DNA from: Candidatus Omnitrophota bacterium | GTDB taxonomy: Bacteria; Omnitrophota; Omnitrophia; Omnitrophales; Omnitrophaceae | Direction of reading: 5' to 3' | NCBI GenBank assembly: GCA_016209715.1 | Contig: JACQVP010000014.1 | Coordinates: 1-58,993, forward strand | Length of the DNA: 58,993 bases | Shown here: piece after piece, positions 20,527 through 41,616 of the stretch | Numbering within the stretch: position 1 is the stretch's first letter | Layout: each line of letters starts with the position of its first letter | Notes under the pieces: model-generated | The model's database searches: none | What the model saw: the letters and a program-made list of their open reading frames with translations, nothing else | Told to the model about the DNA's origin: nothing | Position numbers and translations under genes: made by a program

Positions 20527-21336
20527 TTAAGAATAAGCGTGGAGAGAAGCCAGCCAGAAATTGACGCCGAAATAGGTAAACATCACCAGAAAGAAACCGA
20601 AAAACGCGAGCACGGCAAAGCCCCGGCCGGATCCGTTTTCCATCGACCGCACATGATGAAGGGCCCCATACAAGGCCCAGGTGATGAAGGCCCAGGTTTC
20701 CTTGGGATCCCAGTTCCAATAGCGACCCCAGGAAGCGTTGGCCCAGACAGCGCCGGTGGAAATGCCCAGCGTCAAAAAAGCGAATCCGACCGCGATGAGC
20801 CTCGCCATCAGTCGGTCCAAATACTCCAGCCGGCCTTCGATCTCGCCGCGTTTTTCCGGCCGGGAGACAAATTTCCTCGCCGCGTCCAGGAATAAATAGA
20901 TGCCGGCCGTGCCGAATGCCACGGCAAAAGAGGCGTAGCCGAGGATGGCCGCCGTAACATGGAAGAGCAGCCAATTGCTTTTCAAGGCCGGCAGAAGGGG
21001 CTCAATATCGGATGACAAGAGCGAGCACAATCCGAGCAGGACGGCGGCCGTCAGACCGGCGAACCCCCCTACGGAAAGCGCCCGGAATTTCGGGAAGGTG
21101 GTCCAGTAAATGGCCATCATGAGAAAACCGAGCAAAATCAGGGTTTCGTAAGTATTGGACCATGGGAGATGGCCCGCCTGGACCCCGCGGATGGCGATCA
21201 CGGAGCCGTGAAAAGCAAGCAGCCCGAGACCCATCGAGATTGCGGACCAAAACCAAATCCTCCCTCCGGAAACGGCTGCGGAAAAGGATACCAGGGCAAA
21301 GAGAAGATAACATAACATCAAAATGCCGATGATCAT
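20527..21336 (-). CDS. ccsA: Cytochrome c biogenesis (System II) haem-handling protein
   Basis: WGRYWNWDPKETWAFITW tryptophan-rich haem motif and polytopic sequence. The start is trimmed to the ATG at 21336 (an ATGA overlap). Confidence 0.85.
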   Translation of the reverse strand: MIIGILMLCYLLFALVSFSAAVSGGRIWFWSAISMGLGLLAFHGSVIAIRGVQAGHLPWSNTYETLILLGFLMMAIYWTTFPKFRALSVGGFAGLTAAVLLGLCSLLSSDIEPLLPALKSNWLLFHVTAAILGYASFAVAFGTAGIYLFLDAARKFVSRPEKRGEIEGRLEYLDRLMARLIAVGFAFLTLGISTGAVWANASWGRYWNWDPKETWAFITWALYGALHHVRSMENGSGRGFAVLAFFGFFLVMFTYFGVNFWLASLHAYS

Positions 21337-22637
21337 CTCACACCGCCCCCCTTCACAACCGGTTCCAGTTCCCTCAGTATGATCCCGGCTTCGTATTTCA
21401 AGCCCGCGGGATCTTTGACGCAGGCGCCTGAACATTCATAGGAGCTCTCTTCCCCGCGCCGCTCGGGAACAAAAGAAATCCGTATGCCCCGCGGGATGAC
21501 AAAGGCACTCAGAAAGGCACCCAGGATCATGACCACAAAGCCCGCATAGGCAAGCGGCCAGCCCGGATCATAGCTCACTTTCATCCCGGAAGAGTAAATC
21601 TTCCGGATCCTCCCGATGGCAAAGGCCCATTCTGCGGGACCAGCGCCCTGATGCAAAAATAGATCGGAGAATACCCAAATCTGCTTCTCGGGGGTATCGG
21701 GCGAGGTGGAAGTATACAAAAACAAGGAGACCGCGGGATTGCGGAAATAGGGAGAACGGCTCGCCGCTTTTCCGCCTTGAACGATGACAAAATCCGGAAC
21801 GATCTCACCCGCCTCGACCGTGTAAGGCAGCCCCGCGAGTCCTGATTTTTTACCCGGCGCGAGGGTGATTTCACCGAAGGGTTTGCCGTTTTTATAGACC
21901 CGGAGAACTACCTCCCGGATCTTCACGCTGTAACGCATCTGAAAAACCCGCACTCCCCCTATCTGCAGGGGGCCGTTCACACTCAAGTCATGGTGCTCGA
22001 TCCGTCCCTTCCGGTCCTGAACCAGTAAACGGCTCACGTAAGACGCGACATTGCCCGTCGCGTCCAGCATCACGCTGAATTTCTCCAATTTGATTTTGGC
22101 ACCTCCCCGCGCAAGCAAGGTCGTGGCGCCTTCTTGCAATTCGATGTCCCGGACGTCCGCGAACGAATAAGTCAAAAGCCCCGCGAGAAGGGCAACCACC
22201 AGTCCAGCATGGACCAGGAAACTGCCCCAAATGCCGTCCAAATCCTTAACGCCGGTAAAAGAGAACCGCAATTTCTCCATTTTCGCGATCACGCGGTATC
22301 TCTTCGACCTCAGGACCGATGAAATCCGATCCTGATACTCCTGCAGATCTGAAAATGGGATCCTGGCGGGTCGGAAATCTTGAAGGCGCGTCTCCCGCCC
22401 CGCGGTGGTAATCTCATCCGCGGCCGCCATCCGGAACAAATCGATCCCCTTGCGGACTGTGTGCGACACCGCGAAGACTCCCAGGAGTCCCAAAAAAGCG
22501 ACAAACGGCTTCGCCGCAAACAGGGCACTGGGATTTTTCAAAAAAGGGAGGGTACTTTCAGGAATGGTGCCGAACGCGGCCGCGGCGCAGATCAAAACGA
22601 TCAAAACATTGACAAAGCGCAGAATAGAAGTAGTCAC
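21333..22637 (-). CDS. ccsB: Cytochrome c biogenesis protein ResB/CcsB
   Basis: N-terminal TM helices, a large soluble domain, a C-terminal TM and translational coupling to ccsA. GTG start. Confidence 0.7.
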   Translation of the reverse strand: MTTSILRFVNVLIVLICAAAAFGTIPESTLPFLKNPSALFAAKPFVAFLGLLGVFAVSHTVRKGIDLFRMAAADEITTAGRETRLQDFRPARIPFSDLQEYQDRISSVLRSKRYRVIAKMEKLRFSFTGVKDLDGIWGSFLVHAGLVVALLAGLLTYSFADVRDIELQEGATTLLARGGAKIKLEKFSVMLDATGNVASYVSRLLVQDRKGRIEHHDLSVNGPLQIGGVRVFQMRYSVKIREVVLRVYKNGKPFGEITLAPGKKSGLAGLPYTVEAGEIVPDFVIVQGGKAASRSPYFRNPAVSLFLYTSTSPDTPEKQIWVFSDLFLHQGAGPAEWAFAIGRIRKIYSSGMKVSYDPGWPLAYAGFVVMILGAFLSAFVIPRGIRISFVPERRGEESSYECSGACVKDPAGLKYEAGIILRELEPVVKGGGVR

Positions 22638-22666: not shown

Positions 22667-24817
22667 TTATTCAAACGCTTTCTTAAATCCGACGGTCACG
22701 CCCTGGCCAAAATACTCGTCGTTGTAACCGCTGAAACCTCGGCCGTCGTAGAATTTGAATATCTGGTAGCGGGCCTCGAAGGAGCAGGTCTTGCTGATAT
22801 CGTACTGGATCCCCGCGGTCACCTCATTCATGGTGTTCCGATTATCGCCGAGGGAATCCGTCAATTGATACCCCGTGGACAGCACGCTCTTCTTGGTCAG
22901 ACGATAATTCAGATTGGAAACCAGATAATATACGTCTCCGTTAAAATCGTAAGCGCCTGTGCCGCCCGACCAATTGCTCCTTCCGGTAGCGTCCGTCGGC
23001 GTATCCACGCGGTAATAATCGTACATTCCGGCGAAATACCCGAATAAATTCCGGATCACCGGTCCCGAGAAAGCCATCGAAAAGCGATCCCGGTCCAAAT
23101 TCTGCTGCTGATCTCCGACTTTGGGAAATTCAATATTGTCCATGATCCATTGGTATTTCAAGGTCGAGATCCACGCCGCCGGCAGTTTCACGTCTAAGTT
23201 CGCAGTGATTTCCTGCACCATCCGCTCCTGATCGCCCAGATAACCGGGATAATATCGAGGCAACGTGTCCGACCGGGTGTTGTACTGACGCTCTCTCTGC
23301 TGCCATTTGTACTGCAGATTCGCCTTCATCCTCGAATTCAACCTCTGGGCTATCTTCACTTTCGGCACGTAGTCCAGATAAGTGACATTGGTTTCATAAC
23401 TCAGTTCGGGCGCTCCGGATCCCCAACCCGCATCCGTGAAGATTTCATGATTGCGCGCGTCAAATGTTTCTTTCCAATTCAAACGCCGCTGCTCGAGATC
23501 AATGCCCGCGTAAGCGGTAGTCCCTTGACGCCGGTACGTGACCGACAACGCTTCCCCAAACCAGCCTTCGCTCAAATTGGTATCGGAGGACCGGAGGTTA
23601 TTGATCCCGCCCGCGATCAACGTGCCATGATTGTCCGTCACGGCATGCTCGCCGCGAAATCCGAACCGCATATCGAGACCCTTCCGCCGCAGAAAATCCA
23701 GCATGGCGCTTCCCGCGCTCACGGTATTGCTGACCCTCCAGTTGTCGACATCCGGGCTCCAATAAATATTGGGATTGGCCAGATTCGGCCGGACCTCGCT
23801 GCGGACACTGTCATTCCGGAGAAAATTGAAGAAATAGCCCCCGTGCACGTAAACATCGTCGGACCAGAAGCTGTCGTACTTCGTTTGGAGTTTGATATCG
23901 TGAAATTGGTAGCGGTCGATATAGTCGCGCTTCTGAGCAAGGACTCCATTCGTGTATCTCGTCGAATCGGTAAACTGGCCGTCTTGATAGGCTTCATATG
24001 AAATCAGCGGCTCAATATTGTGTTTCTCGGCAACCTTCATCGGAAGACTGAGAGTGAATTTGTTGCTCACTCCATCCACCTGCCGTCTCATTGAAATAGA
24101 GCGCAGAGACGGCAATCCCGTGCGCGTGGCCACGTCCCCCTTGAGCAGGGTCTCCCTGCCTTCGCGAGTCCATAAGCCGTATTTAAAAATCAGTTTTGAT
24201 GTTTCCGATACCGGATACCCCAATTCCACATCGACATTTCCGCGGTCCGTATAAAGATCCTCGTCCGTCCAATCTCCGAACTCATCTGGCAGACGATACT
24301 GAGATGGATCCCACGGCTTGTCTTCCGTGCCATTCCAATATTTTCTAAACCGCTTCCATCTTGCATCCAGATAATAACCGCCCTCTTTTGAAACGCGCAT
24401 GTCAGCCAAATAGCTGTAATTGACGAGGGCCTTCCCCTTGAACTCCGTGGTGATGTCGCCGGAAGCATCCTTAAAATACAAGCCCCTTACCCCGCCCGTC
24501 GTCTGGTCATCCGTATACCAGTCTTCCCGAAACCGGCCTCTATCGCCTTTCACGTAGTAATGAGTGATCGAAGGTGCGACCACAAAAAGATCCGGGCTCG
24601 CCCCCGGAAAATCACCGAAGTATTTCTCCTTTAGATTCTGTGTCGCCTGCGCGGAACTCGGAGCAGCATTTTGCGCAGAAGGCTGCGGCTGGCTTTCTGT
24701 TATTTCTTTGGTCTCGGAAATCGCAATCTCGTCGGCATTAGCATTCAAGGAGGCGAAACACAAAATCCCGACCGTCAGGAGAACCGCCCCAAAGCCACCG
24801 CGGAGATGGATTCTCAT
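22667..24817 (-). CDS. Outer-membrane beta-barrel protein (MtrB/PioB-like porin of a porin-cytochrome pair)
   Basis: Signal peptide ending SLNANA-DE and 716 aa with alternating aromatic/polar strands (YxY, FxF) throughout. The start overlaps the stop of the cytochrome gene (ATGA). Confidence 0.65.
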   Translation of the reverse strand: MRIHLRGGFGAVLLTVGILCFASLNANADEIAISETKEITESQPQPSAQNAAPSSAQATQNLKEKYFGDFPGASPDLFVVAPSITHYYVKGDRGRFREDWYTDDQTTGGVRGLYFKDASGDITTEFKGKALVNYSYLADMRVSKEGGYYLDARWKRFRKYWNGTEDKPWDPSQYRLPDEFGDWTDEDLYTDRGNVDVELGYPVSETSKLIFKYGLWTREGRETLLKGDVATRTGLPSLRSISMRRQVDGVSNKFTLSLPMKVAEKHNIEPLISYEAYQDGQFTDSTRYTNGVLAQKRDYIDRYQFHDIKLQTKYDSFWSDDVYVHGGYFFNFLRNDSVRSEVRPNLANPNIYWSPDVDNWRVSNTVSAGSAMLDFLRRKGLDMRFGFRGEHAVTDNHGTLIAGGINNLRSSDTNLSEGWFGEALSVTYRRQGTTAYAGIDLEQRRLNWKETFDARNHEIFTDAGWGSGAPELSYETNVTYLDYVPKVKIAQRLNSRMKANLQYKWQQRERQYNTRSDTLPRYYPGYLGDQERMVQEITANLDVKLPAAWISTLKYQWIMDNIEFPKVGDQQQNLDRDRFSMAFSGPVIRNLFGYFAGMYDYYRVDTPTDATGRSNWSGGTGAYDFNGDVYYLVSNLNYRLTKKSVLSTGYQLTDSLGDNRNTMNEVTAGIQYDISKTCSFEARYQIFKFYDGRGFSGYNDEYFGQGVTVGFKKAFE

Positions 24818-25590
24818 CGGTTGAATGTCCTCCAGGTATTGGATCCATGCGGTGAACGGTGATGATCCACGCAGTTTTCACCGGGGCCAATGAAGTAATT
24901 TCCGCCGCCCGCGCCGTGCGGCACGCCGCCGATATTACCAGCCTGATTATTGGTATTGGGCTCCCAGTGGCATCGCAGACAGAGCGCATTGTCGTCCGCG
25001 ACGAGCAATTTTGCATAAACGCCGCCGTGGGGTTCATGGCAAACCTGACAGCCGTCCCGCATCGCGTCGTGCTCGAAGACAAACGGCCCTTTGTATTCCT
25101 TATGGCATTTAAAGCATTTTTCGCTGGATCGTTCCAAATCGGTGACGGAATGTGATGCCCGGTCGGCGTTATGCATGCCATGGCAGTCCATGCACGCCAT
25201 TTGCCCTTCCGTCACGGGATGATGAAATTGAAGTTGAAACTGAGCCTTTTTGTCCAGATGGCAGGCGAAACAACGCTCCGTATCATAGCGTATGATCTTT
25301 GTTTTATCTCCGCTGCCGTCCACATGCAGACTTCCGGGACCGTGGCAGGATTCACAGGCCTCCCCGGTGATTTTCTCTCCCTCTTCTAAACTAGTCCCGA
25401 AATGGGATTCCAAGCGGTGCCGCTTCACGACGTCCTCATGGCAAGCGGCGCAGGTTTCCATTCCGACGTATTCGGCCCCCGGTATCGTATGCTGCTCAAG
25501 AGCATTGCGGATTTCTTCATAGTCCCGGCAGGAGGAAATATAAAATGCTGTGAGTGCAAAAATTGGGAGCAACAGGTAACGAAGTTTCAT
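24814..25590 (-). CDS. Heptahaem c-type cytochrome lipoprotein
   Basis: Lipobox FYISSC. Seven CXXCH motifs (CAACH, CESCH, CFACH, CMDCH, CFKCH, CQVCH, CLRCH) with paired CXXCH-x-PH spacing, plus a terminal CVDHH. Confidence 0.85.
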   Translation of the reverse strand: MKLRYLLLPIFALTAFYISSCRDYEEIRNALEQHTIPGAEYVGMETCAACHEDVVKRHRLESHFGTSLEEGEKITGEACESCHGPGSLHVDGSGDKTKIIRYDTERCFACHLDKKAQFQLQFHHPVTEGQMACMDCHGMHNADRASHSVTDLERSSEKCFKCHKEYKGPFVFEHDAMRDGCQVCHEPHGGVYAKLLVADDNALCLRCHWEPNTNNQAGNIGGVPHGAGGGNYFIGPGENCVDHHRSPHGSNTWRTFNR

Positions 25591-25605: not shown

Positions 25606-25621
25606 GGCCAGAATCGTGCCA
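25606..25621 (-). promoter_or_regulatory. Sigma54 (-24/-12) promoter TGGCACGATTCTGGCC
   Basis: The minus strand reads GTTGGCACGATTCTGGCCTA. TGGCACG is perfect, the GG-N10-GC spacing is correct, and it lies about 15-30 nt upstream of the cytochrome ATG in the 48-nt gap after the NtrC-type regulator gene. Confidence 0.6.
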
Positions 25622-25638: not shown

Positions 25639-27096
25639 TTACTGTTCAGAGTTCTGAGATTGGGTGTTTTGGCTCAAGTCGGCTGGATCTTCCGTGTCAT
25701 TCAACCCATATTTTCCCATTTTATACCGCAAAGCGTCCCGGCCAATGCCCAGCATGCGTGCGGCCTTGGACTGATTCCCCGATGCCGCTTCCAGCGTCTG
25801 GATCACAAGCTGTTTTTCGATTTCATCCAGCGGAACGGACAAGAGACAGGTGGGCAATTTATTGGAGGGCTTGCCGGAAGACGGCGCGCTTCCTTCCGAC
25901 TTGTAATCCTTCAGCACACAGCCGCAATCGATCTCCGCCGGAAGATGATGGGTCCGGATGAGGGTTTCTTCATTCAGGATCATCGCCCTTTCGATGATGT
26001 TTTTGAGCTCCCTCACGTTCCCGGGCCATTTATAATTCAGGAGCATTTCCAGCGCGTCCGGCGCGATGCCGGAAATCGATTTTTTGAATTCCCGGTTGAA
26101 GTGGGCAAGGAAATAGCCCGCTAATGCCGGGATGTCCTCTTTCCGCTCACGCAGCGGATGAAGATAAATAGGCACGACGTTCAGCCGATAGTAAAGGTCT
26201 TCCCGAAAGCGCCCCTCCCGGACTTCCACCTTCACGTCTTTGTTCGTCGCCGCGAGGATCCTCACGTCGGCCTCAAGTTCCTTGACCCCGCCGATCTTGC
26301 GGAATTTTTTCTGATCGATGAGATGGAGAAGTTTTGCCTGGAGCTCCTTCGGCATATCGCCGATCTCGTCCAGGAAAAGGGTTCCTCCCTGCGCTTCTTC
26401 AACCAGCCCTTTTTTAGACTGACGCGCGTCCGTGAAAGCGCCCTTTTCATACCCAAACAATTCGCTCTCGAGAAGGGTCGCCGGAAGCGCGGCGCAATTC
26501 ACGGCGATGAAGGGACGCGCCGCCCGGCGGCCCCCATAATGGATCACACGGGCGAGCAGGTCCTTGCCCGTGCCGCTGGCGCCCTCGAGAAGCACGGTGG
26601 ACGCCTCCGAAAGACATATCTGCCTCACCAAATCGAGCACCCGTTTCATGAAAACACTTTCGGCTACGATATTGGACCAATCATATTTTCCACGTTCGAT
26701 GGACTCCCACTCATGGATCTTTTTCCGCAATTTCCTTCTCTCAATCGCTTTTTCGATATTGAGCTTGAGTTCGTCAAATTGAAACGGCTTGTGCAGATAA
26801 GTGAACGCCCCTGCCTGCATGCATTCGACCGCGCTCCGGATGTCATCATTCGCGGTGATGACCAGGACGGAGACCAAAGGATCCCGCTTCATCATTTCCA
26901 TCAGAACATCCTTCCCGTTTCCGTCCGGGAGGCGCAAGTCCAGGATGACCACGTCGACCACGTCCTCTTCAAAGAGCCGCAATCCCGCGCCGGCCTTCGT
27001 GGCCGTAGCGACTTCATACCCTTCGCGCGTCAAATCTTTTTCCAACGACCAGCAAATCAATTTTTCATCATCCACGATCAATATTTTGGCCTTCAT
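25639..27096 (-). CDS. Sigma54-dependent response regulator (REC + AAA+ + Fis-type HTH)
   Basis: ILIVDDE...DLRLPDG receiver, GASGTGKD Walker A, GAFTDA sigma54-contact loop and a C-terminal QSKAARMLGIGRDALRYKM HTH. Confidence 0.9.
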   Translation of the reverse strand: MKAKILIVDDEKLICWSLEKDLTREGYEVATATKAGAGLRLFEEDVVDVVILDLRLPDGNGKDVLMEMMKRDPLVSVLVITANDDIRSAVECMQAGAFTYLHKPFQFDELKLNIEKAIERRKLRKKIHEWESIERGKYDWSNIVAESVFMKRVLDLVRQICLSEASTVLLEGASGTGKDLLARVIHYGGRRAARPFIAVNCAALPATLLESELFGYEKGAFTDARQSKKGLVEEAQGGTLFLDEIGDMPKELQAKLLHLIDQKKFRKIGGVKELEADVRILAATNKDVKVEVREGRFREDLYYRLNVVPIYLHPLRERKEDIPALAGYFLAHFNREFKKSISGIAPDALEMLLNYKWPGNVRELKNIIERAMILNEETLIRTHHLPAEIDCGCVLKDYKSEGSAPSSGKPSNKLPTCLLSVPLDEIEKQLVIQTLEAASGNQSKAARMLGIGRDALRYKMGKYGLNDTEDPADLSQNTQSQNSEQ

Positions 27097-28634
27097 CCCA
27101 TCCTCCCCGCCTCCACAGAGGCCTCGTCCACCGCAGACTCCGCCGCGGCCGGCAAAATGATGCTTAAAATCGTTCCCTTCCCGGGAAGGCTTCGTGCCCG
27201 GATCGAGCCGTGGTGGGCCTCGATGATCCCCTTGGAAACCGACAGCCCCAATCCTGTTCCGTCCGCGCGCGTAGTGAAAAAAGGTTCAAAGATGGAGGCC
27301 AAGACGTCTGCGTCCATTCCCAAGCCGGTGTCCTCCACTTCGGTGAGAACTCCGTCCGGGACGGGCTCGATGCGAACGCTCAAAACGCCGCCTTCCGGCA
27401 TGGCGTTTGCGGAATTTAAGAACAAGTTCAGAAAGACCTGCTCCAACTGCCCTTCGTCCCCGCACACGGCCAATCCCGGGGATTTCGCCGTCACCTGAAA
27501 GCGGATGTTCCGCGACCTGAGAAAATGCTCCGCCAAATGAAATGCCTGCTGGACCGGGTCGGCGAGCGGGCACCGATCAAAAGAGGGCGGCTTTTGCCGC
27601 GCGTACCTCAAAAGATTATGAAGGGTCTTTTCGATGCGCCCAACCTGCATGATGAGCTCCGTAAAAATTTCGGGGTCCTGCCCGGGCTGAAGCTCGCTCT
27701 TGAGCGCATGGAGCGTCGAACTCATCGCGGCCAGCGGATTTTTAATTTCATGCGAAATATTGGAAATGAATTGCCCGAGAGAAGCCAGACGGTTTGAATG
27801 TGCAAGTTCGCGGCGGTGCTGTTCGGCAATTTTCTGCTGGGCCCGGCGAAAGCCGCGGATCATGGCGTTGAAGCTTTCTGAAAGGCGTTTCAAATCCGCA
27901 TCGCCCCGGATAGAAATCTTGGCATCGAGTTGCCCGCGCTGCGCTTTCTCCATCTCCGATATCAGCTGCCGAATGGGTTTGCGCACAATGGTCCGGACGA
28001 CCCACCGGATGAGGACCGCACTCAGCAGGATGATGCCGCCCGCGGCGATAATCATGAAGAGCCGGTTTTCGGCGAAGCGTTTGAAGATCGGCGCCAGGGA
28101 GACGTGAAGCTCGATCCCTCCCAACGCGGCCCCGGGGACAACGTCATGGCAGCGCATGCAGGCGGCCCGGCTGTGCACGGGATGCACGATCCGGAGGGTC
28201 CCCTTCGCACCCTTCTCCTGGAAGTGGATCACGCCTTGGTCGCGCGTAAAACGGTCCGCATCGGTCGTCGTCAAATCGACTGCCTGGTCGATTTTACGAG
28301 GGACCGTTGAAAAACGAATAATCCCTTTCGCATTGAAGATGTTGATCTCCGCGAGACCCAGACGATCTTTTTCGCTCCCGATCACCTGCTGCAATTGTGC
28401 CGGGTCGAACGTTTCGTTCATCATGGTCTCGATCAGCTTTCCCTTAAGGTACTGCGCCTGGTAGAGGGACGTCGTCACCAGCGTTTCGGCGATCCGCTTG
28501 GAAGCCCCTTTCATCAAAGCGAAGGCGCCGATCCCCACGATGAGACACACCACGGCGCCGACGGTCAGGACGAGTTTCACGGTCAGGGATTGAAACAGGA
28601 TCCTTTCCAAAAAGCCGGCCCTCCTAGTTCCCAT
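27093..28634 (-). CDS. Sensor histidine kinase with a periplasmic CXXCH (haem c) domain, HAMP, HisKA and HATPase
   Basis: Two TMs flank an approximately 150-aa loop containing CMRCH. H-box NISHEIKNPL; N/G boxes LNSANAM and DTGLGM...GTGLGLS. Confidence 0.85.
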   Translation of the reverse strand: MGTRRAGFLERILFQSLTVKLVLTVGAVVCLIVGIGAFALMKGASKRIAETLVTTSLYQAQYLKGKLIETMMNETFDPAQLQQVIGSEKDRLGLAEINIFNAKGIIRFSTVPRKIDQAVDLTTTDADRFTRDQGVIHFQEKGAKGTLRIVHPVHSRAACMRCHDVVPGAALGGIELHVSLAPIFKRFAENRLFMIIAAGGIILLSAVLIRWVVRTIVRKPIRQLISEMEKAQRGQLDAKISIRGDADLKRLSESFNAMIRGFRRAQQKIAEQHRRELAHSNRLASLGQFISNISHEIKNPLAAMSSTLHALKSELQPGQDPEIFTELIMQVGRIEKTLHNLLRYARQKPPSFDRCPLADPVQQAFHLAEHFLRSRNIRFQVTAKSPGLAVCGDEGQLEQVFLNLFLNSANAMPEGGVLSVRIEPVPDGVLTEVEDTGLGMDADVLASIFEPFFTTRADGTGLGLSVSKGIIEAHHGSIRARSLPGKGTILSIILPAAAESAVDEASVEAGRMG

Positions 28635-30531
28635 TTTCGCCGTGCCCTTCCGGGGACTTTCCCGTGAACATGCTCCAATTCATGGGGTAATTTTCGGGGT
28701 CGAACATCGCAAAATAAAAATGCCAGATCACGATGGCCAGCGTCGCCAGCACGGCTTCGTAAAAATGGACGATGGTCGCGACGTCGAGCGCCCATTTGGG
28801 GAAATACCGCATCGCGAAATTCTCATAGACCAGCATCAGCCCGGTGACGGCCATGACCACGGAGCCCCAGACCAGCGCCCAGTATTCGAGCTTTTCCACG
28901 TAGTTGTATCGCGCCAAGACGGGTTTCTCCGGCGTCAGGCCGAGATTGTGCTTCTGCATGCGCCAGAAATCGGAGAAATCCTTCGCCGCGGGGAGCAGCG
29001 CCCGGAACTGGCCGCGCCCGCGTTTGGTGAAAGCGAGGTAGCCCAGGTGGAAGGCGCCCACGGCCATGAACAACTTGGCCGCCAGGCGGTGCACGATCCC
29101 GCGCCAATCGGCCTGCGTCCCGAAGAAGGTGAAAGGCGCGGCCCACCAGGCGTCCGGATATTTGAGGGCGAAACCGGAATAGGCGAGCAGGATGAAAGAA
29201 ACGGCCAGGAGCAGGTGCTGGATCCGCTCGCTCAGCGTGAACCGGGTGTGCCGCCCTTTTTGCTTGGCCCGGGCGTAATGCTCGCGGAGTTTGCGCGCGA
29301 AATCAAGGGCGTTGTGCACGATCATCCCCCCGATCACCAGCAGAATGAGCCAGACATAAAAGACCCCCACGAAGTAGACCACCTGATCGCGGAGACTGGA
29401 AGGCGCGATGTGGATCGAGCCCTTGGCCAATTGATCGCTCACGTTCGGGTGGCAGCGCCCGCAGGTTTGGGGAAGGTTTTTCTTGTTGACCGAAGAGGCC
29501 GGGTCGCTCGAAGGCAGGATGTCGTGGGCGCCGTGACAGCTGGCGCAATTCGCCACCGTGGTGCGCCCGAACTTGCTCGCCAGCCCGTGATAACTTTCCA
29601 GATAAGTTTTCACCCGGTCGGCGGGCAGGCGGTATTTGGTGACGACCTTCTCGGCGGCATGGCAGTGGCCGCAGGTCTTTTCGGACACCGCGGTGGTGTA
29701 GACCGTCGAGGCCGGGTCTTTGTGCGAAAGGATGTTGTGCTCGCCGTGGCAATCGGTGCAGACGGGCACTTCCATCTTGCCCGCCAGGGCGGCGCGGCCG
29801 TGGATGCTCCGCTCGTAAGTCCGCAGCACGTTCTCGTGGCACTTGCCGCAGGTGCCGGGCACGTGCTTTTTGAAAATTTTCGATTCGGGATTGGTCGGCG
29901 CGTGCAGGTCGTGCGAACCGTGGCAATCGTTGCAGACGGCCGCGGAAAGGTTCTTCTTCTCCAAGAGCGCCTTGCCGTGCACCGTGTCGGCGTACGAATG
30001 AAGGGGTTGTTTCTCCAGCAGGGAATACCTCGCCATCATCTTCTCGTTCTCGTGGCAGACGGCGCAGGTCTGCGGGATGTTCAACCGGTGGATCGGGGAA
30101 AGGGGATCCCGCGCGCTGCGAATGGTGTGTGTGTCGCCGTGGCAATTGAGACAGCTCGCCGCGGGGACCCCGCTCTTGAGCGCCTTGCCGTGGTCGGAGG
30201 CGCCGTAAATCTCGGCCTCGACGCGGTGGCAGACCGCGCAATCGACCTGTTTCAGGCTTTCCGGGTGGGGCAATTCTTTGATGTCGCTGTGGCAGGAAGT
30301 GCACAAATTGCTCCCGTGCGCGGTGGTCTCGAAATCCTCGAGCTTGAACGTGTCGTGGCAGGCGAGGCAGTCTTCGTTGGCGATGGTTTCAGCCGCTGCC
30401 GGCTCGTCCAGCGGCGCGGGGGCAGGTTCCTCGGCGCAAGCCAGCGCCGCCCAGAGGCAGATCGCGAGCGCGATCAGGATCAGGACGAGATCCAGCTTTA
30501 CGCGATTTCCCCCGAATGGCAATCGAAACAA
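28624..30531 (-). CDS. CbcL-like fusion: periplasmic 11-haem cytochrome c plus a 5-TM b-type cytochrome (FdnI/HydC-like) domain
   Basis: Signal peptide, 11 CXXCH motifs, then His-bearing TM helices (IQHLLLAVSF, IVHRLAAKLF, VATIVHFYEAV). TTG start at 30531 or 30522. Confidence 0.8.
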   Translation of the reverse strand: MFRLPFGGNRVKLDLVLILIALAICLWAALACAEEPAPAPLDEPAAAETIANEDCLACHDTFKLEDFETTAHGSNLCTSCHSDIKELPHPESLKQVDCAVCHRVEAEIYGASDHGKALKSGVPAASCLNCHGDTHTIRSARDPLSPIHRLNIPQTCAVCHENEKMMARYSLLEKQPLHSYADTVHGKALLEKKNLSAAVCNDCHGSHDLHAPTNPESKIFKKHVPGTCGKCHENVLRTYERSIHGRAALAGKMEVPVCTDCHGEHNILSHKDPASTVYTTAVSEKTCGHCHAAEKVVTKYRLPADRVKTYLESYHGLASKFGRTTVANCASCHGAHDILPSSDPASSVNKKNLPQTCGRCHPNVSDQLAKGSIHIAPSSLRDQVVYFVGVFYVWLILLVIGGMIVHNALDFARKLREHYARAKQKGRHTRFTLSERIQHLLLAVSFILLAYSGFALKYPDAWWAAPFTFFGTQADWRGIVHRLAAKLFMAVGAFHLGYLAFTKRGRGQFRALLPAAKDFSDFWRMQKHNLGLTPEKPVLARYNYVEKLEYWALVWGSVVMAVTGLMLVYENFAMRYFPKWALDVATIVHFYEAVLATLAIVIWHFYFAMFDPENYPMNWSMFTGKSPEGHGENGN

Positions 30532-32009
30532 TTCATCTCCTTCCAGGCTTCGCCCACGTCTTCATCGGGATGCTTGAACTCGAGCCCACCCGTGTTGCTT
30601 TCGATCGCCCCCGGCTTTCCCTGCTCCATGATGATGTGGCAGGAGTTGCAATCGTTGGTGAGGATCTCGCCTCCCGCGGTTTTATGTTTGTTGTCGTGGC
30701 ACCGGAAACATCCCGGCGCGTCTTTGTGCCCGATGTTCTCCGGATAGGCCTTCCAGGAAACCTTCATCTCGGGGAAAAAGTTGCTTTTGTAAATCTTGAC
30801 CACGGTGTTAACGCTCCTGGCTAAACTGTCCTTTTTCTCCTTCAGCACCGCGGGGTACTCCGATTCATAAAAGGCCTTCAACGATTCCCGGATCCCGGCC
30901 GCGGCTTCCTTCTCGCTGGCGTATTCGCCGACCAGGGCCTTCACCGCCTCCCGCTTTATATAAGGAAGCTCGCGGTCAATCTCCCCCACCGAAAGGGCTT
31001 CGTTGACCGCGTCCACCGGCGTCCGGAAATTGTGGCTGGGCCGGTTGTGGCAGTCCATGCAATCCATGCGCCGTATCTCGCCCGGGGGCGGCGAAGCCGC
31101 GGAAAACCCCGATTCTTCGTCCACGTAGACACGCTCCTTCCCTTCCGGGTCGATGATTTTGACCCAGGGGATCACGTGGCGCTCTTCGTCGGTGGCGATG
31201 TAATAAACTTTATTTTTGATGTTCATGTGCCAATGGATGCCCTCTTTTTTGCCGAACTTGCGGGTCCCCCCGCCCACGAACAGGAGCATCCGCGTGCGCC
31301 ATTCAGTGTTGGCCTCATCGGGCAGGAAATACTGCTTGTCCTGTTCCACGGCGCCGAAAAACTGCTGCGGCCAATGGCACCGCTCGCAAGTCTCCTGTGC
31401 CGGACGCAGGTGTTTGATGGGCGTTTCAATAGGCTTGGAATATTTTTTCATGACCACCGAATACACCTGGTAGGCCCCTGAAAATTTGGAGCGGACATAC
31501 CACGCCGCGCCCGGCCCGATGTGACATTCCACGCATTTGACCCGCGCGTGCGGCGAATTGTGATAGGCGGTAAATTCCGGCTTCATCACCTCGTGGCAAA
31601 CGCGGCCGCAGAACGTTTGCGACTCCGTGAATTCGTAAGAACGAAACAGGCCAAACACGGTGAAAAGCCCGAACAGGGTGGTCACCCCGATCGTGGTGAA
31701 GGCCCATTTTTGATGGGTCGGATTGTTGAAGTCGATCGCGGGAAAGCGCCGGACGGTGCCGTGTTTGAGCCGCGCGGCCCGCTCCCGAAGGGCCCCCACG
31801 GGGATCAGGATCAAACTCAAGGTCAAGAAGGCCGGCGCCAGAAAATAAGTGATAATCCCGATGTAAGGATTGATCTCCTTCGACCAGATGTCCAGGAAGG
31901 ACAGGAACAGGATCACCGTGAAGAAGATGACGGACAGTATCCCCCCGATGACGCTGATCCAATTCTGGAAATAGGAGTCCTTTTTATTCGGGTTATTCGG
32001 GTCCATCAT
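30498..32009 (-). CDS. ImcH-like inner-membrane multihaem cytochrome (NapC/NirT-related)
   Basis: Three N-terminal TM helices; CGRVCH (CX3CH) plus six CXXCH motifs (CVECH, CERCH, CMDCH, CFRCH, CNSCH, CFDCH). ATG at 32009 behind AGAGGGA; the track start at 32012 is a TTG. Confidence 0.7.
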   Translation of the reverse strand: MMDPNNPNKKDSYFQNWISVIGGILSVIFFTVILFLSFLDIWSKEINPYIGIITYFLAPAFLTLSLILIPVGALRERAARLKHGTVRRFPAIDFNNPTHQKWAFTTIGVTTLFGLFTVFGLFRSYEFTESQTFCGRVCHEVMKPEFTAYHNSPHARVKCVECHIGPGAAWYVRSKFSGAYQVYSVVMKKYSKPIETPIKHLRPAQETCERCHWPQQFFGAVEQDKQYFLPDEANTEWRTRMLLFVGGGTRKFGKKEGIHWHMNIKNKVYYIATDEERHVIPWVKIIDPEGKERVYVDEESGFSAASPPPGEIRRMDCMDCHNRPSHNFRTPVDAVNEALSVGEIDRELPYIKREAVKALVGEYASEKEAAAGIRESLKAFYESEYPAVLKEKKDSLARSVNTVVKIYKSNFFPEMKVSWKAYPENIGHKDAPGCFRCHDNKHKTAGGEILTNDCNSCHIIMEQGKPGAIESNTGGLEFKHPDEDVGEAWKEMNCFDCHSGEIA

Positions 32010-32031
32010 CAAAGTCCCTCTTAGCTGTGCA

Positions 32032-32156: not shown

Positions 32157-32687
32157 TTATTTATTTGGAACCGGGTGCTTAATCTTCTCCCACCGTTCCG
32201 CAAAATTGAACGGCCTGAAATTCGGGTTTTCTTCGTTATGGCATTTCACGCAAGTCGCTTCGGTGGGAATCTCCATTCCCGCCTTCATCGCCGCGTCCCG
32301 ATTTTCCATAATGCTCTTCTTGGCATAGTCTTTCCCCGCACCGTGGCAAGACTCGCAGGAAACGCCTTCCTCGACCGGCACTTTTTGTGTAACTTTTTGC
32401 TCTGTAAGACCATACGCTGTCGCATGGCATTTCAAGCATTTGCCGCTCGTCGTGGGATCTTCAATTCCCAGCTTGGCTGCGGTTTCCTTGGCAGCCGGTG
32501 TCGTAAGTGTTTGGTAGGCTTTGGAATGTGCGGATTCCTGCCAAATCCTCAGCTGTTCGCCCTGTTCCGGTTTCTTGTGGCACATTGAACACATCTTCAC
32601 CCCTGTGTATTCATGAGCGGCCAGTGCCGCGTCCAAGGGGGCCAGCAGATTCACTGCCAAAAACATCATGATCCATTTCTTCATCAC
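32157..32687 (-). CDS. Periplasmic tetrahaem c-type cytochrome
   Basis: Signal peptide ending LDAALA-AH and four CXXCH motifs (CSMCH, CLKCH, CESCH, CVKCH). The track start is a GTG at 32687; the first ATG is at 32684. Confidence 0.85.
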   Translation of the reverse strand: MMKKWIMMFLAVNLLAPLDAALAAHEYTGVKMCSMCHKKPEQGEQLRIWQESAHSKAYQTLTTPAAKETAAKLGIEDPTTSGKCLKCHATAYGLTEQKVTQKVPVEEGVSCESCHGAGKDYAKKSIMENRDAAMKAGMEIPTEATCVKCHNEENPNFRPFNFAERWEKIKHPVPNK

Positions 32688-33069
32688 CCATCACCCCTTT
32701 CCTCTGGCATCTTAAATTTCTACTAATACAATCTTGATGCCAAGATCAAACCGTTATTACGAATTATTGCTCTCTCCTAAGTCATATTTCAGAAATGAGT
32801 TATACTATCGGCCCGCGCCGGCAGATTTGACCCCGCCAGCGCCTTGCGTCATTTCACTCAATGGCCTTTAAAGGGCTGCGTCAGAATCCCTAAGGATCGT
32901 TATTGTTTCTGTAATAATGGCTAATTTTGCTGCTTTCTGATTAATCTTAAAGGCAACTGGCTCGACAGGAATCATGATGCGATCTCTGTGCGGAGTTGGG
33001 TCTTCCGATCTTTGACCGCGCTGATGTCAAAAATTTCAAAACATCTCTTCCGTTGCGGATTTTTCTGAA

Positions 33070-33170: not shown

Positions 33171-36100
33171 ATGGAAAAAAAACCTATGCGATTGAATTTC
33201 CACTTTCATAAGTCGCATAGTGTTAGACGGGTCCTCCTCCTCTCTTTCTTCTTTCTTCTTCCTTTCTCTTCCCTGAATTCATACGCCGCCGATTCCTTTC
33301 ACGTTCTCGACGCGGCCGACCGCGGCGCCGAGGCCTCCGAACCGGGCCGGGCCTCCACGCTGGCCGGTTACGACGAGACCCGCAAACAGGACGTGATCGA
33401 ACTAAACTATTCCCTTCCCGCGAATGGAACGGCGAGTTTTTGGGCCAAGAATTTTCCGGCCGGCCTGGAGCCGGAGTCCGTCGGGACGGTCGAGATCTCC
33501 GTGAAAACGGCCGATGCCGCGGAGCAGGAGCAAATTTCCGTCACCCTGGATCTAAACGGAAGCGCCGGGACACAGAGCTTCCCCATCGAACTGAAGACCG
33601 GCTGGACGAGCAGGACGGAAATCATTGATTGGCCGACCCTCGGCAAATTGGAGGAATTGAGACTCGACCTGAAGGCCGCGGCGCCCGCGGAAGGAACACT
33701 TACTTTTACGATCTCTTTCAAACCGGCGCCGGCCCCGGCACCAGCCGCGCCCGCGGTGGAAGTCACGGCGCCGGCCAGCTCCGCTCCTGAGCCGGCGGCA
33801 GAGCCTGAGACCGAGGACGCCGAGGCCCCGGCGCCCAAGCCGGAAGTGGTCCCGGCCGCGTGGACGCTCTTCGACGCCGGTCAGCGCGGAGTGGACATGA
33901 GCGGGAACGCCGCCGGCGGGATCATGCCGACTTTTGACGAGGCCGCCAACAAGGACGTCCTCGAGTTTGACTACACCCTTTCCGAAGGCGACTCCATCAA
34001 AGTCTGGGCCCGGGAGTTCCCTTCGACTCTTTCGAGCGCCACCGCCAACGCCTCTAAAATCAGCGTCCGGGTGATCGAGCCCGGCCAGGCAGAAACGATC
34101 TCGGCCTCGCTCGAAATCCAAGGCAGCGCGGGGGCTCAATCCGTCCCGCTCATTTTGAAATCGGGCTGGAATTCGTCGTTGAACGCCGTGAACTGGGACG
34201 AGACCGGCGATTTACGCGAAGCGGCTCTAGCTTTGGCGCCGGCGCCGGGACAAAAGTCGGCTAAGGGGACGCTCAACGTGGCCGTGGATTTCGTCCGACT
34301 GGCCGACTTGAACCTGCTCCGCTCCTCCGGCCAAACAGCCGCCTGTTCCCTTTTCGACGCGGGTGAAAAGGGCGTCTTCAACATCGGTTCCTCCAAAGGG
34401 CTCATCACCGGCGCCTTCAATGAGCAATTGGGCAAAGACGTGTGGGCCTTCGAGTATTCTTTGCCCGACGCCTCGGTGGTCGGCATCTGGACCAAGAGTT
34501 ACCCCGCCGACCTCAATGCCGCGGCGGCGGACGCGGTCCGGGTCGGGGTCCAGGTCCCCGACTCCAATCAATTGACGCAGGTTTCGGTCAAACTGGAAAT
34601 CAAAGGAGAGAGCGGCATGCAGACCATCCCTCTTTCCCTGAAACCCGGGTACAACTCCGTCGCCGAGCGCATCAACTGGGGGACCATCGGGGCCTTGACG
34701 GAAGTCGTGTTCGTGGTGAGCCCGATGGCCGTGGGGCCGCTCGTGGTGAGCCCCGTCGGCCTGAGCCCGATGGAAAACAAGGAACCCATCAACGGCACCC
34801 TGTACTTCGATCTTGAATTCGGCCGCCTCAGCTTCATGCAAAAGAATGCCACGCTGATCAAGGTGGCCCTGATCTTGTTGGTCGGTCTTCTGGCCTCGCT
34901 CGGCACGTTTGTCGCGAGCCGGACCTTCCGGCGCGAGACCGCACGCGCCACCGCCCCGGAAGAAAACACCGGTCGCAGCCCGGCCGGCAGGGACTTTTTT
35001 TACGGCGCCATGGCCGTTCTCATCGCCGGAGTCGCGATCTACATCTATTCTCTGAATTCGATCAGCCCCCTCGACGGAGCCTTTCATCTCGGTTTCGCCG
35101 GAGTGGCCCTGACGGGGATCGTCATTTCCGCGCTCCTGAAAAAGCATCTCACGGGCGAATGCCTTTCGGCCGGCGAAGTCTTCCAGAATTTCACGGCGTG
35201 CGGCCTCCTGGCCATCGCCACGAGCAAGCAGGAAATCCTCCAGGCGCCCTCCAGTTGGGTTCAGATCTTTCAATTCAGCGGCATGGTGGCCGCGGTCACG
35301 TTTTCCATCTATCAATTTTCGAACGCGCGTTCCCTGGCTGTTTCCCGGCGCCATCTGGGCCCGGTCAGCTGCGCCCTCATCGTGGGCACCCCCTATTTGT
35401 TCAACTGGCTGCTGCTGGTCGAAAACGCTAATTTCCTGCAAACCCTGATCAACGCCCTCACCGTGCACCTGCTGGCCGCCTGGCCCCCGGTCCTGGAATT
35501 CCTGGGCCGGCTTTTGGTCATCTTTCTCTTCAACGAAGCGGTGACGAACGGCATCAGCCTCTCCACCAAAGGCCGCCTGCTCAAATCCGGACTGGCCCAT
35601 GCCGTTATTTTCGGCGTTTCGGCCGGCGTCGTGGTTTCGCCTTACATCGCCGACCTCGGGTCCCTGCCCGCGGTGGGAGCTCTGGCCGCGCCGCTGCGCG
35701 CCCTCGTCGCCATCCTGACCACCGTGCTTTCGTTCGCCGGACTCTGGGGCGAGGTGTATCTCCTCACGGGAATTTCCCTCGACGGCGGCCACAGCAAGGC
35801 CCCCTCCCAGGAAAGCATCCTGAATCACGTCAATATCGGCGTGCGTAAAGGCATGGCTTACAGCGGCATCCTCACCGCCATCTTGTATGTGCTCTTCATC
35901 GTTTTCGACGCGCGCGCGGCACAGGCGTTCATGGCGCGCTTTCCGCTGCCCATCGGCATCCTCGCCGGGGGGCTCATTTTTCCGTTCGTGAAGACCATCA
36001 TCGAGACCTTCGACGGAAGCCTTCCCTTTTTCGAGCGCACCCGTTTCAGCTACCGCGACCCGGTGCTCTATTTCCGCGGCGCGATCGTCGGCTTCGGTTT

Positions 36101-40489: not shown

Positions 40490-40711
40490 ATGAAGACGTT
40501 GAGGAATACCGGGTCGGCCGCGCTTTTGGCCTTGGGGCTGGCCGTTTTCGCGGGGGGAACCGCCGAAGCCAACCACCACCTGGAATGCTGCAAGTATGAA
40601 GGCAAGAAATCTCTCACCCAGAGAGAGCTTCCGGAAGCCCAGAACGAGATCGTGATGATGCGCGTCCAACAAATGGAACGGGCGCAAAAGGAAGCCGGCG
40701 CCGCGCTTTAA
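40490..40711 (+). CDS. Small secreted protein (73 aa) with an HHLECC motif
   Basis: GGAGG 12 nt upstream of the ATG (inside the end of the giant ORF) and a signal peptide ending GTAEA-NHH. Its stop overlaps the convergent stop of the Ehr small-subunit gene. Confidence 0.45.
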   Translation: MKTLRNTGSAALLALGLAVFAGGTAEANHHLECCKYEGKKSLTQRELPEAQNEIVMMRVQQMERAQKEAGAAL

Positions 40712-41616
40712 TTCCCCGGCGCTCCGGCTTTGCCGAGCGCCACGAAGATCCCGTACAGAATCGCCTCCGGACGGGGCGGACAGCCCGGAATATAAACGTC
40801 GACCGGCACCGCCTGGTCCACCCCTCCCGAGACCGCGTAACTGCCCCGGAAGATCCCCCCGCTCACGGCACAACCCCCGCAAGCCACCACTGATTTAGGA
40901 GAAGGCATCGCCGCGTAAGTCTTCACCAGCGCCAGTTCCATCTGGCGGGTCACCGGCCCCGTCACGAGCAGCAGGTCCGCGTGCCGGGGCGAGGCCACGA
41001 AGTGGATTCCGTATCGTTCGGCATCATAAAGCGGGGTTGACAGATTGGTGATTTCCACTTCGCAGCCGTTGCAGGAGCCCGCGTCGACCTCGCGGACATG
41101 CAGCGACCGGCCGAAGAGCGCGCCGATCTTGTCTTTGAGCTTCCTCCCCAGGTCCTCGAGCGGGAGTCTGTCGGCAAAGTCTCCCTGCTCGTAATTCGGA
41201 TGGCGCGCACGCGCCGCCGCCGGCGGAAAATTCTTTTCCGGAGCTACGAACCGGGGGTCCTTAACGGTCTCGGACAGCCGGAACTCGAATGGCCGCGCGA
41301 GCGCGTCGCGGGAAGGCGCCGCCAGTTCAAATTTCCCCCGGAAGGAAATGGCCTCGTACGGGCAGGCCGGTCCGCAAAGACCGCAAAAGATGCAGTCGCC
41401 GTAATCCAGGACCAGCGTCCGGCGGTTCTCCTTCTGATCGTCCGAGACCGAAAGCGCGTCCGTGGGGCACGCCGCGACGCATTGGCCGCAGCCCGTGCAT
41501 TTGGCGGCGTCGATCTCAGGAGCCCCCGCGAAGCCTAACGGCGCCTCCGTCTGTCCCGGACAATACGAGGGCGCGGGCCTCCCGCTCTGGAAATTTTTTT
41601 TCAGGATCCTCAGCAT
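40708..41616 (-). CDS. Fused 2x[4Fe-4S] ferredoxin (HyfH/NuoI-like) and NuoB/HycG-like small subunit
   Basis: N-terminal CTGCGQCVAACP and CIFCGLCGPACP. C-terminal GSCNGCEVEI, ACGGCAVSGG and IPGCPPRPE (N2/proximal cluster ligands). Confidence 0.85.
   Translation of the reverse strand: MLRILKKNFQSGRPAPSYCPGQTEAPLGFAGAPEIDAAKCTGCGQCVAACPTDALSVSDDQKENRRTLVLDYGDCIFCGLCGPACPYEAISFRGKFELAAPSRDALARPFEFRLSETVKDPRFVAPEKNFPPAAARARHPNYEQGDFADRLPLEDLGRKLKDKIGALFGRSLHVREVDAGSCNGCEVEITNLSTPLYDAERYGIHFVASPRHADLLLVTGPVTRQMELALVKTYAAMPSPKSVVACGGCAVSGGIFRGSYAVSGGVDQAVPVDVYIPGCPPRPEAILYGIFVALGKAGAPGN

Follow-up and report, generated by a model that had tools for sequence, protein, structure and literature searches.

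In Geobacter, the membrane cytochromes ImcH and CbcL transfer electrons out of the quinone pool in the direction of the cell exterior. Proteins of the ImcH family are expected to be menaquinol oxidases required for electron acceptors above about −0.1 V. Three transmembrane (TM) helices, homology to NapC/NirT and one CX3CH plus six CXXCH haem motifs were described for ImcH, whose gene is monocistronic in Geobacter (Levar, 2014, PMC4251993), and a later survey reported the same traits for homologues of 495–519 amino acids (aa), including three from Omnitrophica, with 31.5–49% identity beyond the Geobacter clade (Zhong and Shi, 2018, PMC6295460). CbcL of Geobacter sulfurreducens (GSU0274) has 619 aa, nine haems and six TM helices, and the CbcL/MtrH/MtoC family spans 28.6–100% identity and 3–23 haems, some of its members having five TM helices (PMC6295460). 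According to published Geobacter work, ImcH is electroneutral with protons released in the periplasm, and quinol oxidation by CbcL probably occurs on the cytoplasmic side. Here, we describe a stretch of 58,993 nucleotides (nt) from a Candidatus Omnitrophota bacterium (assembly GCA_016209715.1, contig JACQVP010000014.1; this whole stretch is referred to below as the window), in which a gene of the ImcH family (gene 1) overlaps a gene of the CbcL/MtrH/MtoC family (gene 2) within a cluster of nine genes, and address how common this pairing is among bacteria and which route of electron transfer such a cluster may support. Homology, haem motifs, ligands, topology and conserved synteny are shown directly.

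Gene 1 (30498..32012, minus strand) encodes 503 or 504 aa depending on whether translation starts from ATG at 32009 or from TTG at 32012, the former giving the length of the database entry P0001. Haem-binding motifs are located at residue 135 (CGRVCH) and at residues 160, 209, 318, 435, 455, and 495 (CXXCH), and hydropathy peaks at 19–37, 57–75, and 105–123 correspond to three N-terminal TM helices with an N-in, C-out orientation, which agrees with the positive-inside rule. At E ≤ 1e-5, 7,989 homologous proteins were collected, the best named matches (60–66% identity) all belonging to Candidatus Omnitrophica/Omnitrophota. A Geobacteraceae-type ImcH (P0243, itself about 80% identical to the machine-read fragment of G. 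sulfurreducens ImcH) aligns with gene 1 end to end with 44% identity over 483 aa (E 1e-143, 410 bits), proteins named as Desulfuromonadaceae and Geobacteraceae share 40–42% identity with it (42% for P0265, Geobacteraceae), and 44% identity over 196 aa was obtained with the rebuilt fragment of GSU3259, the ImcH of G. sulfurreducens. The value of 44% falls within the family range published for ImcH. About 190 residues of GSU3259 were rebuilt from the machine-read alignment in the supplement of bioRxiv 10.1101/2023.05.03.539133. Alignments read in this way from the supplements of PMC9129911 and of the bioRxiv paper are unreliable, that of CbcL giving identical strings for all species and that of ImcH dropping conserved shaded letters, so that the rebuilt sequences are about 80% faithful as judged by their best matches; a chimeric query assembled from the rebuilt fragments found Desulfuromonadia-type relatives, not GSU3259 or GSU0274.

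Likeness to GSU3259 extends from the overall plan (about 500 aa, the third of the N-terminal TM helices being followed by a NapC/NirT-like region) to the near-same positions of the CX3CH and six CXXCH motifs, whose histidines are offset by +3, +3, +3, +6, +6, +6, and +8. The axial ligands published for GSU3259 are His137, 152, 161, 210, 256, 258, 316, 321, 423, 433, 453, 474, and 491 and Gln179, the quinol pocket comprising Glu127, Lys173, and Tyr188 (Pimenta et al., bioRxiv 10.1101/2023.05.03.539133). All 13 histidines have counterparts in gene 1 (H140, H155, H164, H213, H260, H262, H322, H327, H429, H439, H459, H481, and H499), as have the distal glutamine of haem 1 (Q182) and the pocket residues (E130, K176, and Y191). 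In an alignment of 14 sequences across phyla, Desulfuromonadia-type ImcH included, ligands and pocket are invariant except for E130 (Glu or Asp) and Y191 (aromatic). Haem positions tabulated for ImcH of Omnitrophica WOR_2 (135, 159, 208, 317, 434, 454, and 494; Table S3 of PMC6295460) match the motifs of gene 1 if the numbering of the table starts at zero, as follows for six of the seven GSU3259 motifs from the numbering of Pimenta et al.

Models of other cytochromes fit gene 1 partially. Pfam NapC/NirT (PF03264) covers residues 102–194 (35.7 bits, cut-off 24.1), and a sequence search of the PDB returned NrfH (2j7a_C) as the only, distant match, aligned over residues 107–230 including the lysine equivalent to K82 of NrfH, which differs from gene 1 in its single TM helix, its four haems and its docking of NrfA; the copy of the PDB searched contains no solved structure of ImcH or CbcL. 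Among NCBIfam models none scored above its cut-off for gene 1 (NrfH TIGR03153, 52.4 versus 134.2 bits; TorC, 18.8 versus 455). Judged by its sequence, gene 1 is a member of the ImcH family, as had been proposed in an earlier reading made from the nucleotide letters alone (further the sequence-only reading) and is now borne out by end-to-end identity and retention of all published ligands. The outcome named there as speaking for another identity, namely best matches to NrfH/NapC-type proteins or to partners of HAO, was not observed, given the NrfH score of 52 against 134 bits and no nrfA, napA or hao nearby.

Gene 2 (28624..30531, minus strand) encodes a bc-type cytochrome of 635 aa, in which 11 CXXCH motifs (residues 55, 77, 98, 127, 156, 200, 228, 258, 287, 329, and 357) follow a signal peptide with a hydrophobic segment at 15–33 ending in A-C-A (31–33) and precede a dihaem b domain. 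Pfam Ni_hydr_CYTB (PF01292) matches residues 430–613 with 57.4 bits (cut-off 30.1), and FdnI (1kqf_C) was the only match in a PDB sequence search, its His18, 57, 155, and 169 being aligned to H439, H481, H589, and H604. These four histidines are invariant across 46 homologues, and so are 11 histidines of the haem domain lying outside the motifs, one per haem, which is consistent with bis-His ligation. The AlphaFold2 (AF2) model built with the homologue alignment (mean predicted local distance difference test score, pLDDT, of 77.9) contains long helices at 383–421, 433–457, 476–501, 544–568, and 579–609. Its top match in Foldseek is again FdnI 1kqf_C (TM-score 0.67 normalised to FdnI, probability 1.00), the cytochrome b of hydrogenase-1 also being among the structural matches. 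Residues 432–610 thus both align to and model on FdnI (1kqf chain C) with all four haem ligands, FdnI being, unlike gene 2, a separate subunit of a molybdenum (Mo)/iron–sulphur (FeS) enzyme, whereas both modules of the Omnitrophota pair serve multihaem c domains only. No NCBIfam model passed for gene 2, the formate dehydrogenase gamma model reaching 60 bits under a cut-off of 116.

With a Desulfuromonadales-type CbcL (P0284, a proxy 75% identical to a fragment from Desulfuromonas sp.), gene 2 shares 33% identity over 430 aa (E 2e-60, 197 bits), the proxies of this type being N-terminally truncated so that five haems and the whole membrane part were covered. This is similar to the roughly 35% that separates CbcL from MtoC/MtrH. 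Common to gene 2 and GSU0274 are the signal peptide, the multihaem c domain with apparently all-bis-His ligation, one linker TM helix, the HydC/FdnI-like dihaem b domain with its four histidines, the distances among the final four haems, and 28 residues from the last haem to the first TM helix. Gene 2 differs in having 11 haems and not nine, five TM helices and not six, and in lacking a C-terminal cytoplasmic segment: it ends about 10 residues past the equivalent of FPMDFVIFNG, just after the b domain, whereas CbcL of Desulfuromonadia continues for about 70 aa including the last TM helix. Since haem number, helix number and C-terminus all deviate, gene 2 is regarded as a member of the CbcL/MtrH/MtoC family and not as an orthologue of Geobacter CbcL; more precisely, its sequence assigns it to a subgroup with 11 or 13 haems that is typically encoded beside imcH. 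The match to CbcL claimed in the sequence-only reading therefore holds as family homology and fails in the details of GSU0274. Motif scans, hydropathy and, for gene 2, the AF2 model confirmed what had been read there about both proteins, that is, three TM helices and seven haem motifs starting with CX3CH in the former and a signal peptide, 11 CXXCH and five TM helices in the latter, and the proposal that the fifth helix links the periplasmic domain to the b module agrees with the model and with the FdnI match.

The two genes share a stretch of DNA. In frame with gene 2 only two start codons are available, TTG at 30531, which has an AAGGAG Shine-Dalgarno sequence 5 nt upstream, and TTG at 30522; since gene 1 stops with TAA at 30498–30500, the overlap amounts to 34 or 25 nt, exactly as had been proposed. 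A GTG start across the stop codon of gene 1 was ruled out, the codon reading GTA. The overlap and the Shine-Dalgarno sequence predict that genes 1 and 2 are translationally coupled. They belong to nine minus-strand open reading frames (ORFs) arranged head to tail from 32687 to 20527 with short or overlapping junctions, the overlaps being 11 nt between gene 2 and the kinase gene, 4 nt between the kinase and regulator genes, and 4 nt between the gene of an MtrA-like cytochrome and that of a 716-aa protein. In total, 30 haem motifs, far above chance expectation, are concentrated in five adjacent genes of this cluster, beyond which the sole ORF of the window with at least two CXXCH encodes the dihaem gamma subunit of a Mo-enzyme operon.

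Compared with the monocistronic imcH of Geobacter, which has no linkage to cbcL, overlap with a cbcL-type gene in a nine-gene cluster is a clear difference. The generality of this difference was assessed by searching with an ImcH alignment one genome per species (GTDB) and taking the best 80 of at least 600 matches, which come from about 20 phyla, among them Omnitrophota, Ignavibacteriota, Bacteroidota, Acidobacteriota, KSB1, Latescibacterota, Verrucomicrobiota, Kiritimatiellales, Gemmatimonadota, Binatia, Zixibacteria, Calditrichota, Planctomycetia, and Elusimicrobia; CbcL-type neighbours were located by using the b domain of gene 2 as a tblastn query. In half of these loci (40/80) a same-strand CbcL-type gene stands directly beside imcH, upstream in 35 and downstream in 5, the latter including three Omnitrophota loci and one of Kiritimatiellales. 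A further 12 loci have such a gene within 10 kb, and the flanks of the remaining 28, many of which are shorter than 3 kb, contain none. Gaps between the two genes are mostly −4 to 160 nt. ImcH always has seven haem motifs, and the partner has 11 CXXCH in 18 loci and 13 in 12. Examples are a KSB1 genome with a 953-aa CbcL-type gene directly upstream of imcH and Omnitrophica RIFCSPLOWO2_12_FULL_44_17, where the homologues bear consecutive locus tags (A3G33_10520 and A3G33_10525). An apparent CbcL–ImcH fusion ORF in locus L060 proved to be an artefact, the tblastn alignment having crossed a stop codon between genes 12 nt apart.

Given direct adjacency in 40 of the 80 loci and proximity within 10 kb in 12 more, the monocistronic imcH of Geobacter is the exception. 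Since the pairing is usual in many bacterial phyla, the Omnitrophota locus exemplifies a known arrangement and not a new one, and the special character that the sequence-only reading gave to the co-operonic organisation is true only against Geobacter. No explicit statement of imcH–cbcL adjacency was found in the searchable literature, and in the tables of Zhong and Shi the Omnitrophica genomes given for ImcH differ from those given for CbcL (PMC6295460).

Two of the related loci contain additional modules of this kind. In the KSB1 metagenome-assembled genome GCA_030950365.1 (L003, 3936–9068), the fused 953-aa CbcL-type protein beside imcH is accompanied by a split version, in which a 252-aa Ni_hydr_CYTB subunit is encoded separately after a 413-aa multihaem cytochrome; c and b modules thus occur in one locus both fused and unfused. 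This locus also includes Rieske/cytochrome b genes and encodes two c554-like cytochromes. In Omnitrophica RIFCSPLOWO2_12_FULL_44_17 (L001/L002, 1–9965), a trio of cytochrome, FeS (Fer4_11) and NrfD-type genes and a Rieske–cytochrome b pair lie directly upstream of imcH–cbcL together with a second CbcL-type gene of 930 aa, which makes at least four different quinone-interacting modules clustered.

Other genes of the Omnitrophota cluster encode potential partners of the two membrane cytochromes. The first of them (32157..32687, minus strand, as all those that follow in the cluster) encodes a tetrahaem c554-like periplasmic cytochrome of 176 aa with four CXXCH (Pfam Cytochrome_C554, E 9.6e-20), a candidate soluble electron carrier; about 25 of the loci compared encode a homologue no farther than 10 kb from imcH. 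Farther downstream, a 258-aa MtrA/DmsE-like cytochrome with seven CXXCH (24814..25590) matches chain A of PDB 6r2q (333 aa) with E 2.5e-25; we identify this chain, which bears another label in the file, as MtrA of the Shewanella MtrCAB complex. The N-terminus of this protein (MKLRYLLLPIFALTAFYISSC) looks by eye like a lipoprotein-type signal with a lipobox-like ISSC, unlike that of soluble MtrA, and the protein may be membrane-tethered.

The next gene (22667..24817) encodes a putative outer-membrane protein of 716 aa with an N-terminal signal-like segment. It belongs to a rare family, for which 67 representatives were counted among 1.84 billion proteins. Of its homologues, P0370 (30% identity, E 3.6e-68) exceeds the cut-off of the Pfam model MtrB_PioB (PF11854) with 35.1 bits versus 23, another (P0391) reaches 17.3 bits, below this cut-off, and further homologues touch generic beta-barrel families; comparison of the family profile with the PDB gave weak OmpA matches only. 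On this basis the 716-aa protein is a putative divergent porin of the MtrB/PioB type. Searches with the family profile located it directly after an MtrA-like gene and directly before imcH in one Omnitrophota (L040) and one Planctomycetia (L079) locus; further members were located in L001/L002, where in L001 the gene likewise follows an MtrA-like gene near imcH, and at one edge of L038. In L040 (6788–11488) and L079 (7278–11497) the MtrA-like, porin and imcH genes follow in succession, and no CbcL-type gene is present within 10 kb; the outer-membrane pair can thus be joined to ImcH in the absence of CbcL. The 2018 survey reported no mtrAB or mtoAB beside imcH (PMC6295460), unlike the present locus and L040/L079, where an MtrA-like/porin pair is nearby or adjacent.

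The combination of a quinone-interacting inner-membrane cytochrome, an MtrA-like multihaem protein and a large putative porin is shared with the mtoAB–mtoC and mtrABC–mtrH clusters of Gallionella, Dechloromonas, and Rhodoferax and with CymA–MtrCAB of Shewanella, a CbcL-family protein standing here in place of MtoC or MtrH. Unlike those clusters, the Omnitrophota one has a seven-haem lipobox-like MtrA-like protein, a highly divergent putative porin and no MtrC-type surface cytochrome, and includes an ImcH-type protein, a two-component system and genes for cytochrome maturation.

The two-component system follows gene 2 immediately. A sensor histidine kinase (27093..28634; HAMP, HisKA and HATPase domains) has a single haem motif, CMRCH at residue 159, in a periplasmic loop between two hydrophobic segments ahead of HAMP, and its partner is a sigma-54-dependent response regulator (25639..27096) with receiver, AAA+ and Fis helix-turn-helix domains (Pfam Sigma54_activat, E 4e-66). 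Similarity of the kinase to the haem-c PAS-like sensor of Geobacter methyl-accepting chemotaxis proteins is weak (Pfam PF21563, E 0.0045; PDB 3b42, E 0.27), and an assignment as a GSU0935-type sensor was dropped for want of a firm tie at E 0.27. Kinases with one periplasmic CXXCH are also encoded near imcH in L001, L020, L034, and L057, the kinases in Ignavibacteria being cytoplasmic. Sigma-54 promoter candidates upstream of the c554-like gene (32727–32742) and of the MtrA-like gene (25606–25621) were rejected as imperfect and not conserved in related loci; scans for sigma-70 promoters and terminators stayed at background level. The cluster is closed by two genes of System II cytochrome c maturation, ResB/Ccs1 (21333..22637; Pfam ResB, E 4.7e-30) and CcsA/ResC (20527..21435; Pfam Cytochrom_C_asm, E 9.5e-47), with resB recurring in the clusters of L001 and L006 and ccsA homologues in L001, L006, and L038. 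The same nine kinds of gene, from that of the c554-like cytochrome to resB and ccsA, recur in Omnitrophica RIFCSPLOWO2_12_FULL_44_17 (L001) in a slightly different order, the regulator homologue there being 65% identical. The compact, self-regulated module envisaged in the sequence-only reading agrees with this synteny and with recurrence of the gene set in another Omnitrophota genome.

Taken together, these data make it rather probable, in our moderately confident judgement, that the cluster constitutes a self-contained route, built of cytochromes only, that links the quinone pool to the outer membrane or the surface of the cell. If the sidedness of the quinone sites follows the structures of NrfH and FdnI and the published Geobacter work, gene 1 would possess an NrfH-like quinol site at the periplasmic face beside haem 1 (CX3CH, His/Gln ligation), where menaquinol would be oxidised electroneutrally with protons released outside and electrons passed on through six bis-His haems into the periplasm. 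The b domain of gene 2 would form an FdnI-like four-helix dihaem unit with its quinone site near the cytoplasmic face, wired across the membrane by one linker helix to the 11-haem periplasmic domain. Because of this position of the quinone site and this wiring, electron flow through gene 2 would be electrogenic, quinol oxidation consuming the proton-motive force and quinone reduction generating it. Among the likely partners, the c554-like protein would carry electrons and the MtrA-like/porin pair would serve as the outer-membrane conduit, ResB and CcsA would supply haem attachment for about 30 sites, and the kinase with its regulator may plausibly tune expression to the redox state. The extracellular role of this route may take several forms, since electron uptake or soluble and humic acceptors would suit the cluster as well as metal reduction, no MtrC- or OmcS-like surface cytochrome being encoded.

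Several observations weigh against such a route. The cluster itself encodes no extracellular cytochrome of the MtrC or OmcS type, so that it lacks a terminal reductase at the surface. The MtrA-like protein has seven haems and not ten, and it scores 148 bits with the DmsE-family model of NCBIfam (TIGR03508), below the cut-off of 192. Assignment of the porin is indirect, the 716-aa protein having no direct Pfam or PDB match, and its AF2 model from the single sequence is uninformative (pLDDT 31.7). A scan for the sigma-54 promoter motif (TGGCAC-N5-TTGCW) gave 19 matches versus 22 expected by chance, and no sigma-54 promoter was identified. Finally, the comparison with ImcH and CbcL was made via close Desulfuromonadia proxies and a machine-read supplement alignment, and not with GSU3259 and GSU0274 themselves.

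The constancy of the pairing invites another view, in which the ImcH-like and CbcL-like proteins are not alternative oxidases but two arms of one redox loop, possibly within a physical complex. In the CbcL arm, a low-potential donor outside the cytoplasm would deliver electrons through the b haems to menaquinone, which would be reduced at the cytoplasmic face with uptake of protons from inside; in the ImcH arm, menaquinol would be oxidised at the periplasmic face, protons would be released outside and electrons would pass to a periplasmic or extracellular acceptor of higher potential. On balance, 2 H+ would be translocated for every 2 e−, the donor as well as the acceptor lying outside the cytoplasm, and, if this holds, energy would be conserved from redox couples that never enter it. 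[quoted passage not shown] Nevertheless, in G. sulfurreducens the homologues are unlinked and operate as independent alternative quinol oxidases, some genomes have imcH without cbcL within 10 kb (for instance, L040, L046, L070, and L078), and no fused gene was found among the best 80 loci, so we consider the loop unlikely. Equally doubtful seems the evolutionary scenario in which the pair acting as one unit would be ancestral and still widespread, and the separate loci and either/or use in Geobacter would be derived. The same FdnI-like quinone reduction would conserve energy if the cluster imported electrons in the manner of MtoAB–MtoC, with the MtrA-like/porin pair receiving them from extracellular Fe(II), from a mineral acting like a cathode or from a partner cell and the CbcL-like protein working as quinone reductase. 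An MtrA-like protein and a porin lacking an MtrC-type surface cytochrome in the cluster are indeed what mtoAB and pioAB display, and CbcL homologues (MtoC) belong to the mtoAB clusters of Gallionella and Dechloromonas (PMC6295460). ImcH, however, has so far been tied only to quinol oxidation in metal reducers (PMC6295460), the window contains no Cyc2, carbon-fixation genes or high-potential terminal oxidase, and the direction of flow is not revealed by sequence; import as the principal function is accordingly given a low probability.

More local partners can be considered as well. A molybdoenzyme of the type II DMSO-reductase family is encoded at 7.6–15.9 kb by a same-strand operon that starts about 4.6 kb past the last cluster gene, at a distance of about 12.7 kb from gene 2, and the module might chiefly serve periplasmic respiration by giving quinol-derived electrons to this enzyme or by taking electrons from it into the quinone pool. 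The operon encodes a Mo subunit exported by twin-arginine translocation (TAT), together with an FeS subunit and a chaperone, and its haem-b gamma subunit carries two fused cytochrome c domains. Because no membrane anchor for the enzyme is encoded in the window, a cytochrome c is needed to connect it with the quinone pool. Five unrelated genes nevertheless intervene (a Crp/Fnr regulator, a biotin-synthase-like protein, an SPL-like radical SAM protein, an amine oxidase and a small ORF), the operon is absent beside imcH–cbcL in other Omnitrophota loci, L001 having Rieske/cytochrome b and NrfD/FeS genes instead, and the MtrA-like and porin genes would be left without a role, all of which renders this connection decidedly improbable. 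As to an ordinary anchor of the NrfH/NapC/CymA type for nitrite, nitrate or trimethylamine N-oxide in the case of gene 1, and a formate dehydrogenase or hydrogenase cytochrome b fused to cytochromes in the case of gene 2, such identities draw on partial matches to Pfam NapC/NirT, NCBIfam NrfH and FdnI models. All these matches are confined to sub-domains, those to NCBIfam lie far under their cut-offs (NrfH 52 of 134 bits, formate dehydrogenase gamma 60 of 116), full-length similarity goes to relatives of ImcH (410 bits) and CbcL (197 bits), and no nrfA, napA, torA, fdhA or hydrogenase catalytic gene is adjacent. Sub-cut-off scores, full-length matches elsewhere and missing partner genes effectively refute both subunit identities, leaving them hardly any probability.

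Several other features of the window deserve description. The periplasmic type II DMSO-reductase-family operon (7630–15891, minus strand) comprises an alpha subunit of 1154 aa with a TAT signal, an FeS beta subunit of 438 aa, a NarJ/TorD-like chaperone, and a gamma subunit of 556 aa that joins an EB_dh haem-b domain with two class I cytochrome c domains. No score reaches an equivalog cut-off, the candidate types being Nxr-, Clr-, Ser- or Ebd-like. After this operon come genes for biosynthesis of the molybdenum cofactor (3260–7242, minus strand), encoding MoaA, MoaC/MoaB, and MoeA. Divergently from the cytochrome cluster, an ORF of 2436 aa (33171–40481, plus strand) carries GH94 supersandwich and catalytic domains in its C-terminal third (residues 1667–2374), preceded by about three similar N-terminal modules of roughly 170 aa and a long hydrophobic middle part that looks multi-TM, and resembles a giant protein of the cyclic beta-1,2-glucan synthase or glycan phosphorylase kind. 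On the minus strand at 40708–48466, there is a membrane module resembling Complex I and group 4 [NiFe]-hydrogenases, with a NuoB-like subunit fused to 2x[4Fe-4S], NuoH-like and NuoL-like antiporter subunits, and an 853-aa NuoC/NuoD fusion with an N-terminal match to the large subunit of NiFe-hydrogenase.

Taken alone, the locus is of modest significance, adding an Omnitrophota genome in which a complete cytochrome route from the quinone pool to the outer membrane would be assembled from known families. More weight attaches to the comparative result that outside Desulfuromonadia imcH usually has a cbcL-type gene as its neighbour, and that in some Omnitrophota and in one Planctomycetia genome imcH stands beside MtrA-like and porin genes, an association not found in the 2018 survey (PMC6295460). 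The pairing of imcH with cbcL raises the question whether the Geobacter model, in which two quinol oxidases act independently and each at its own potential, applies generally, and presents the two proteins as concrete candidates for cooperation.

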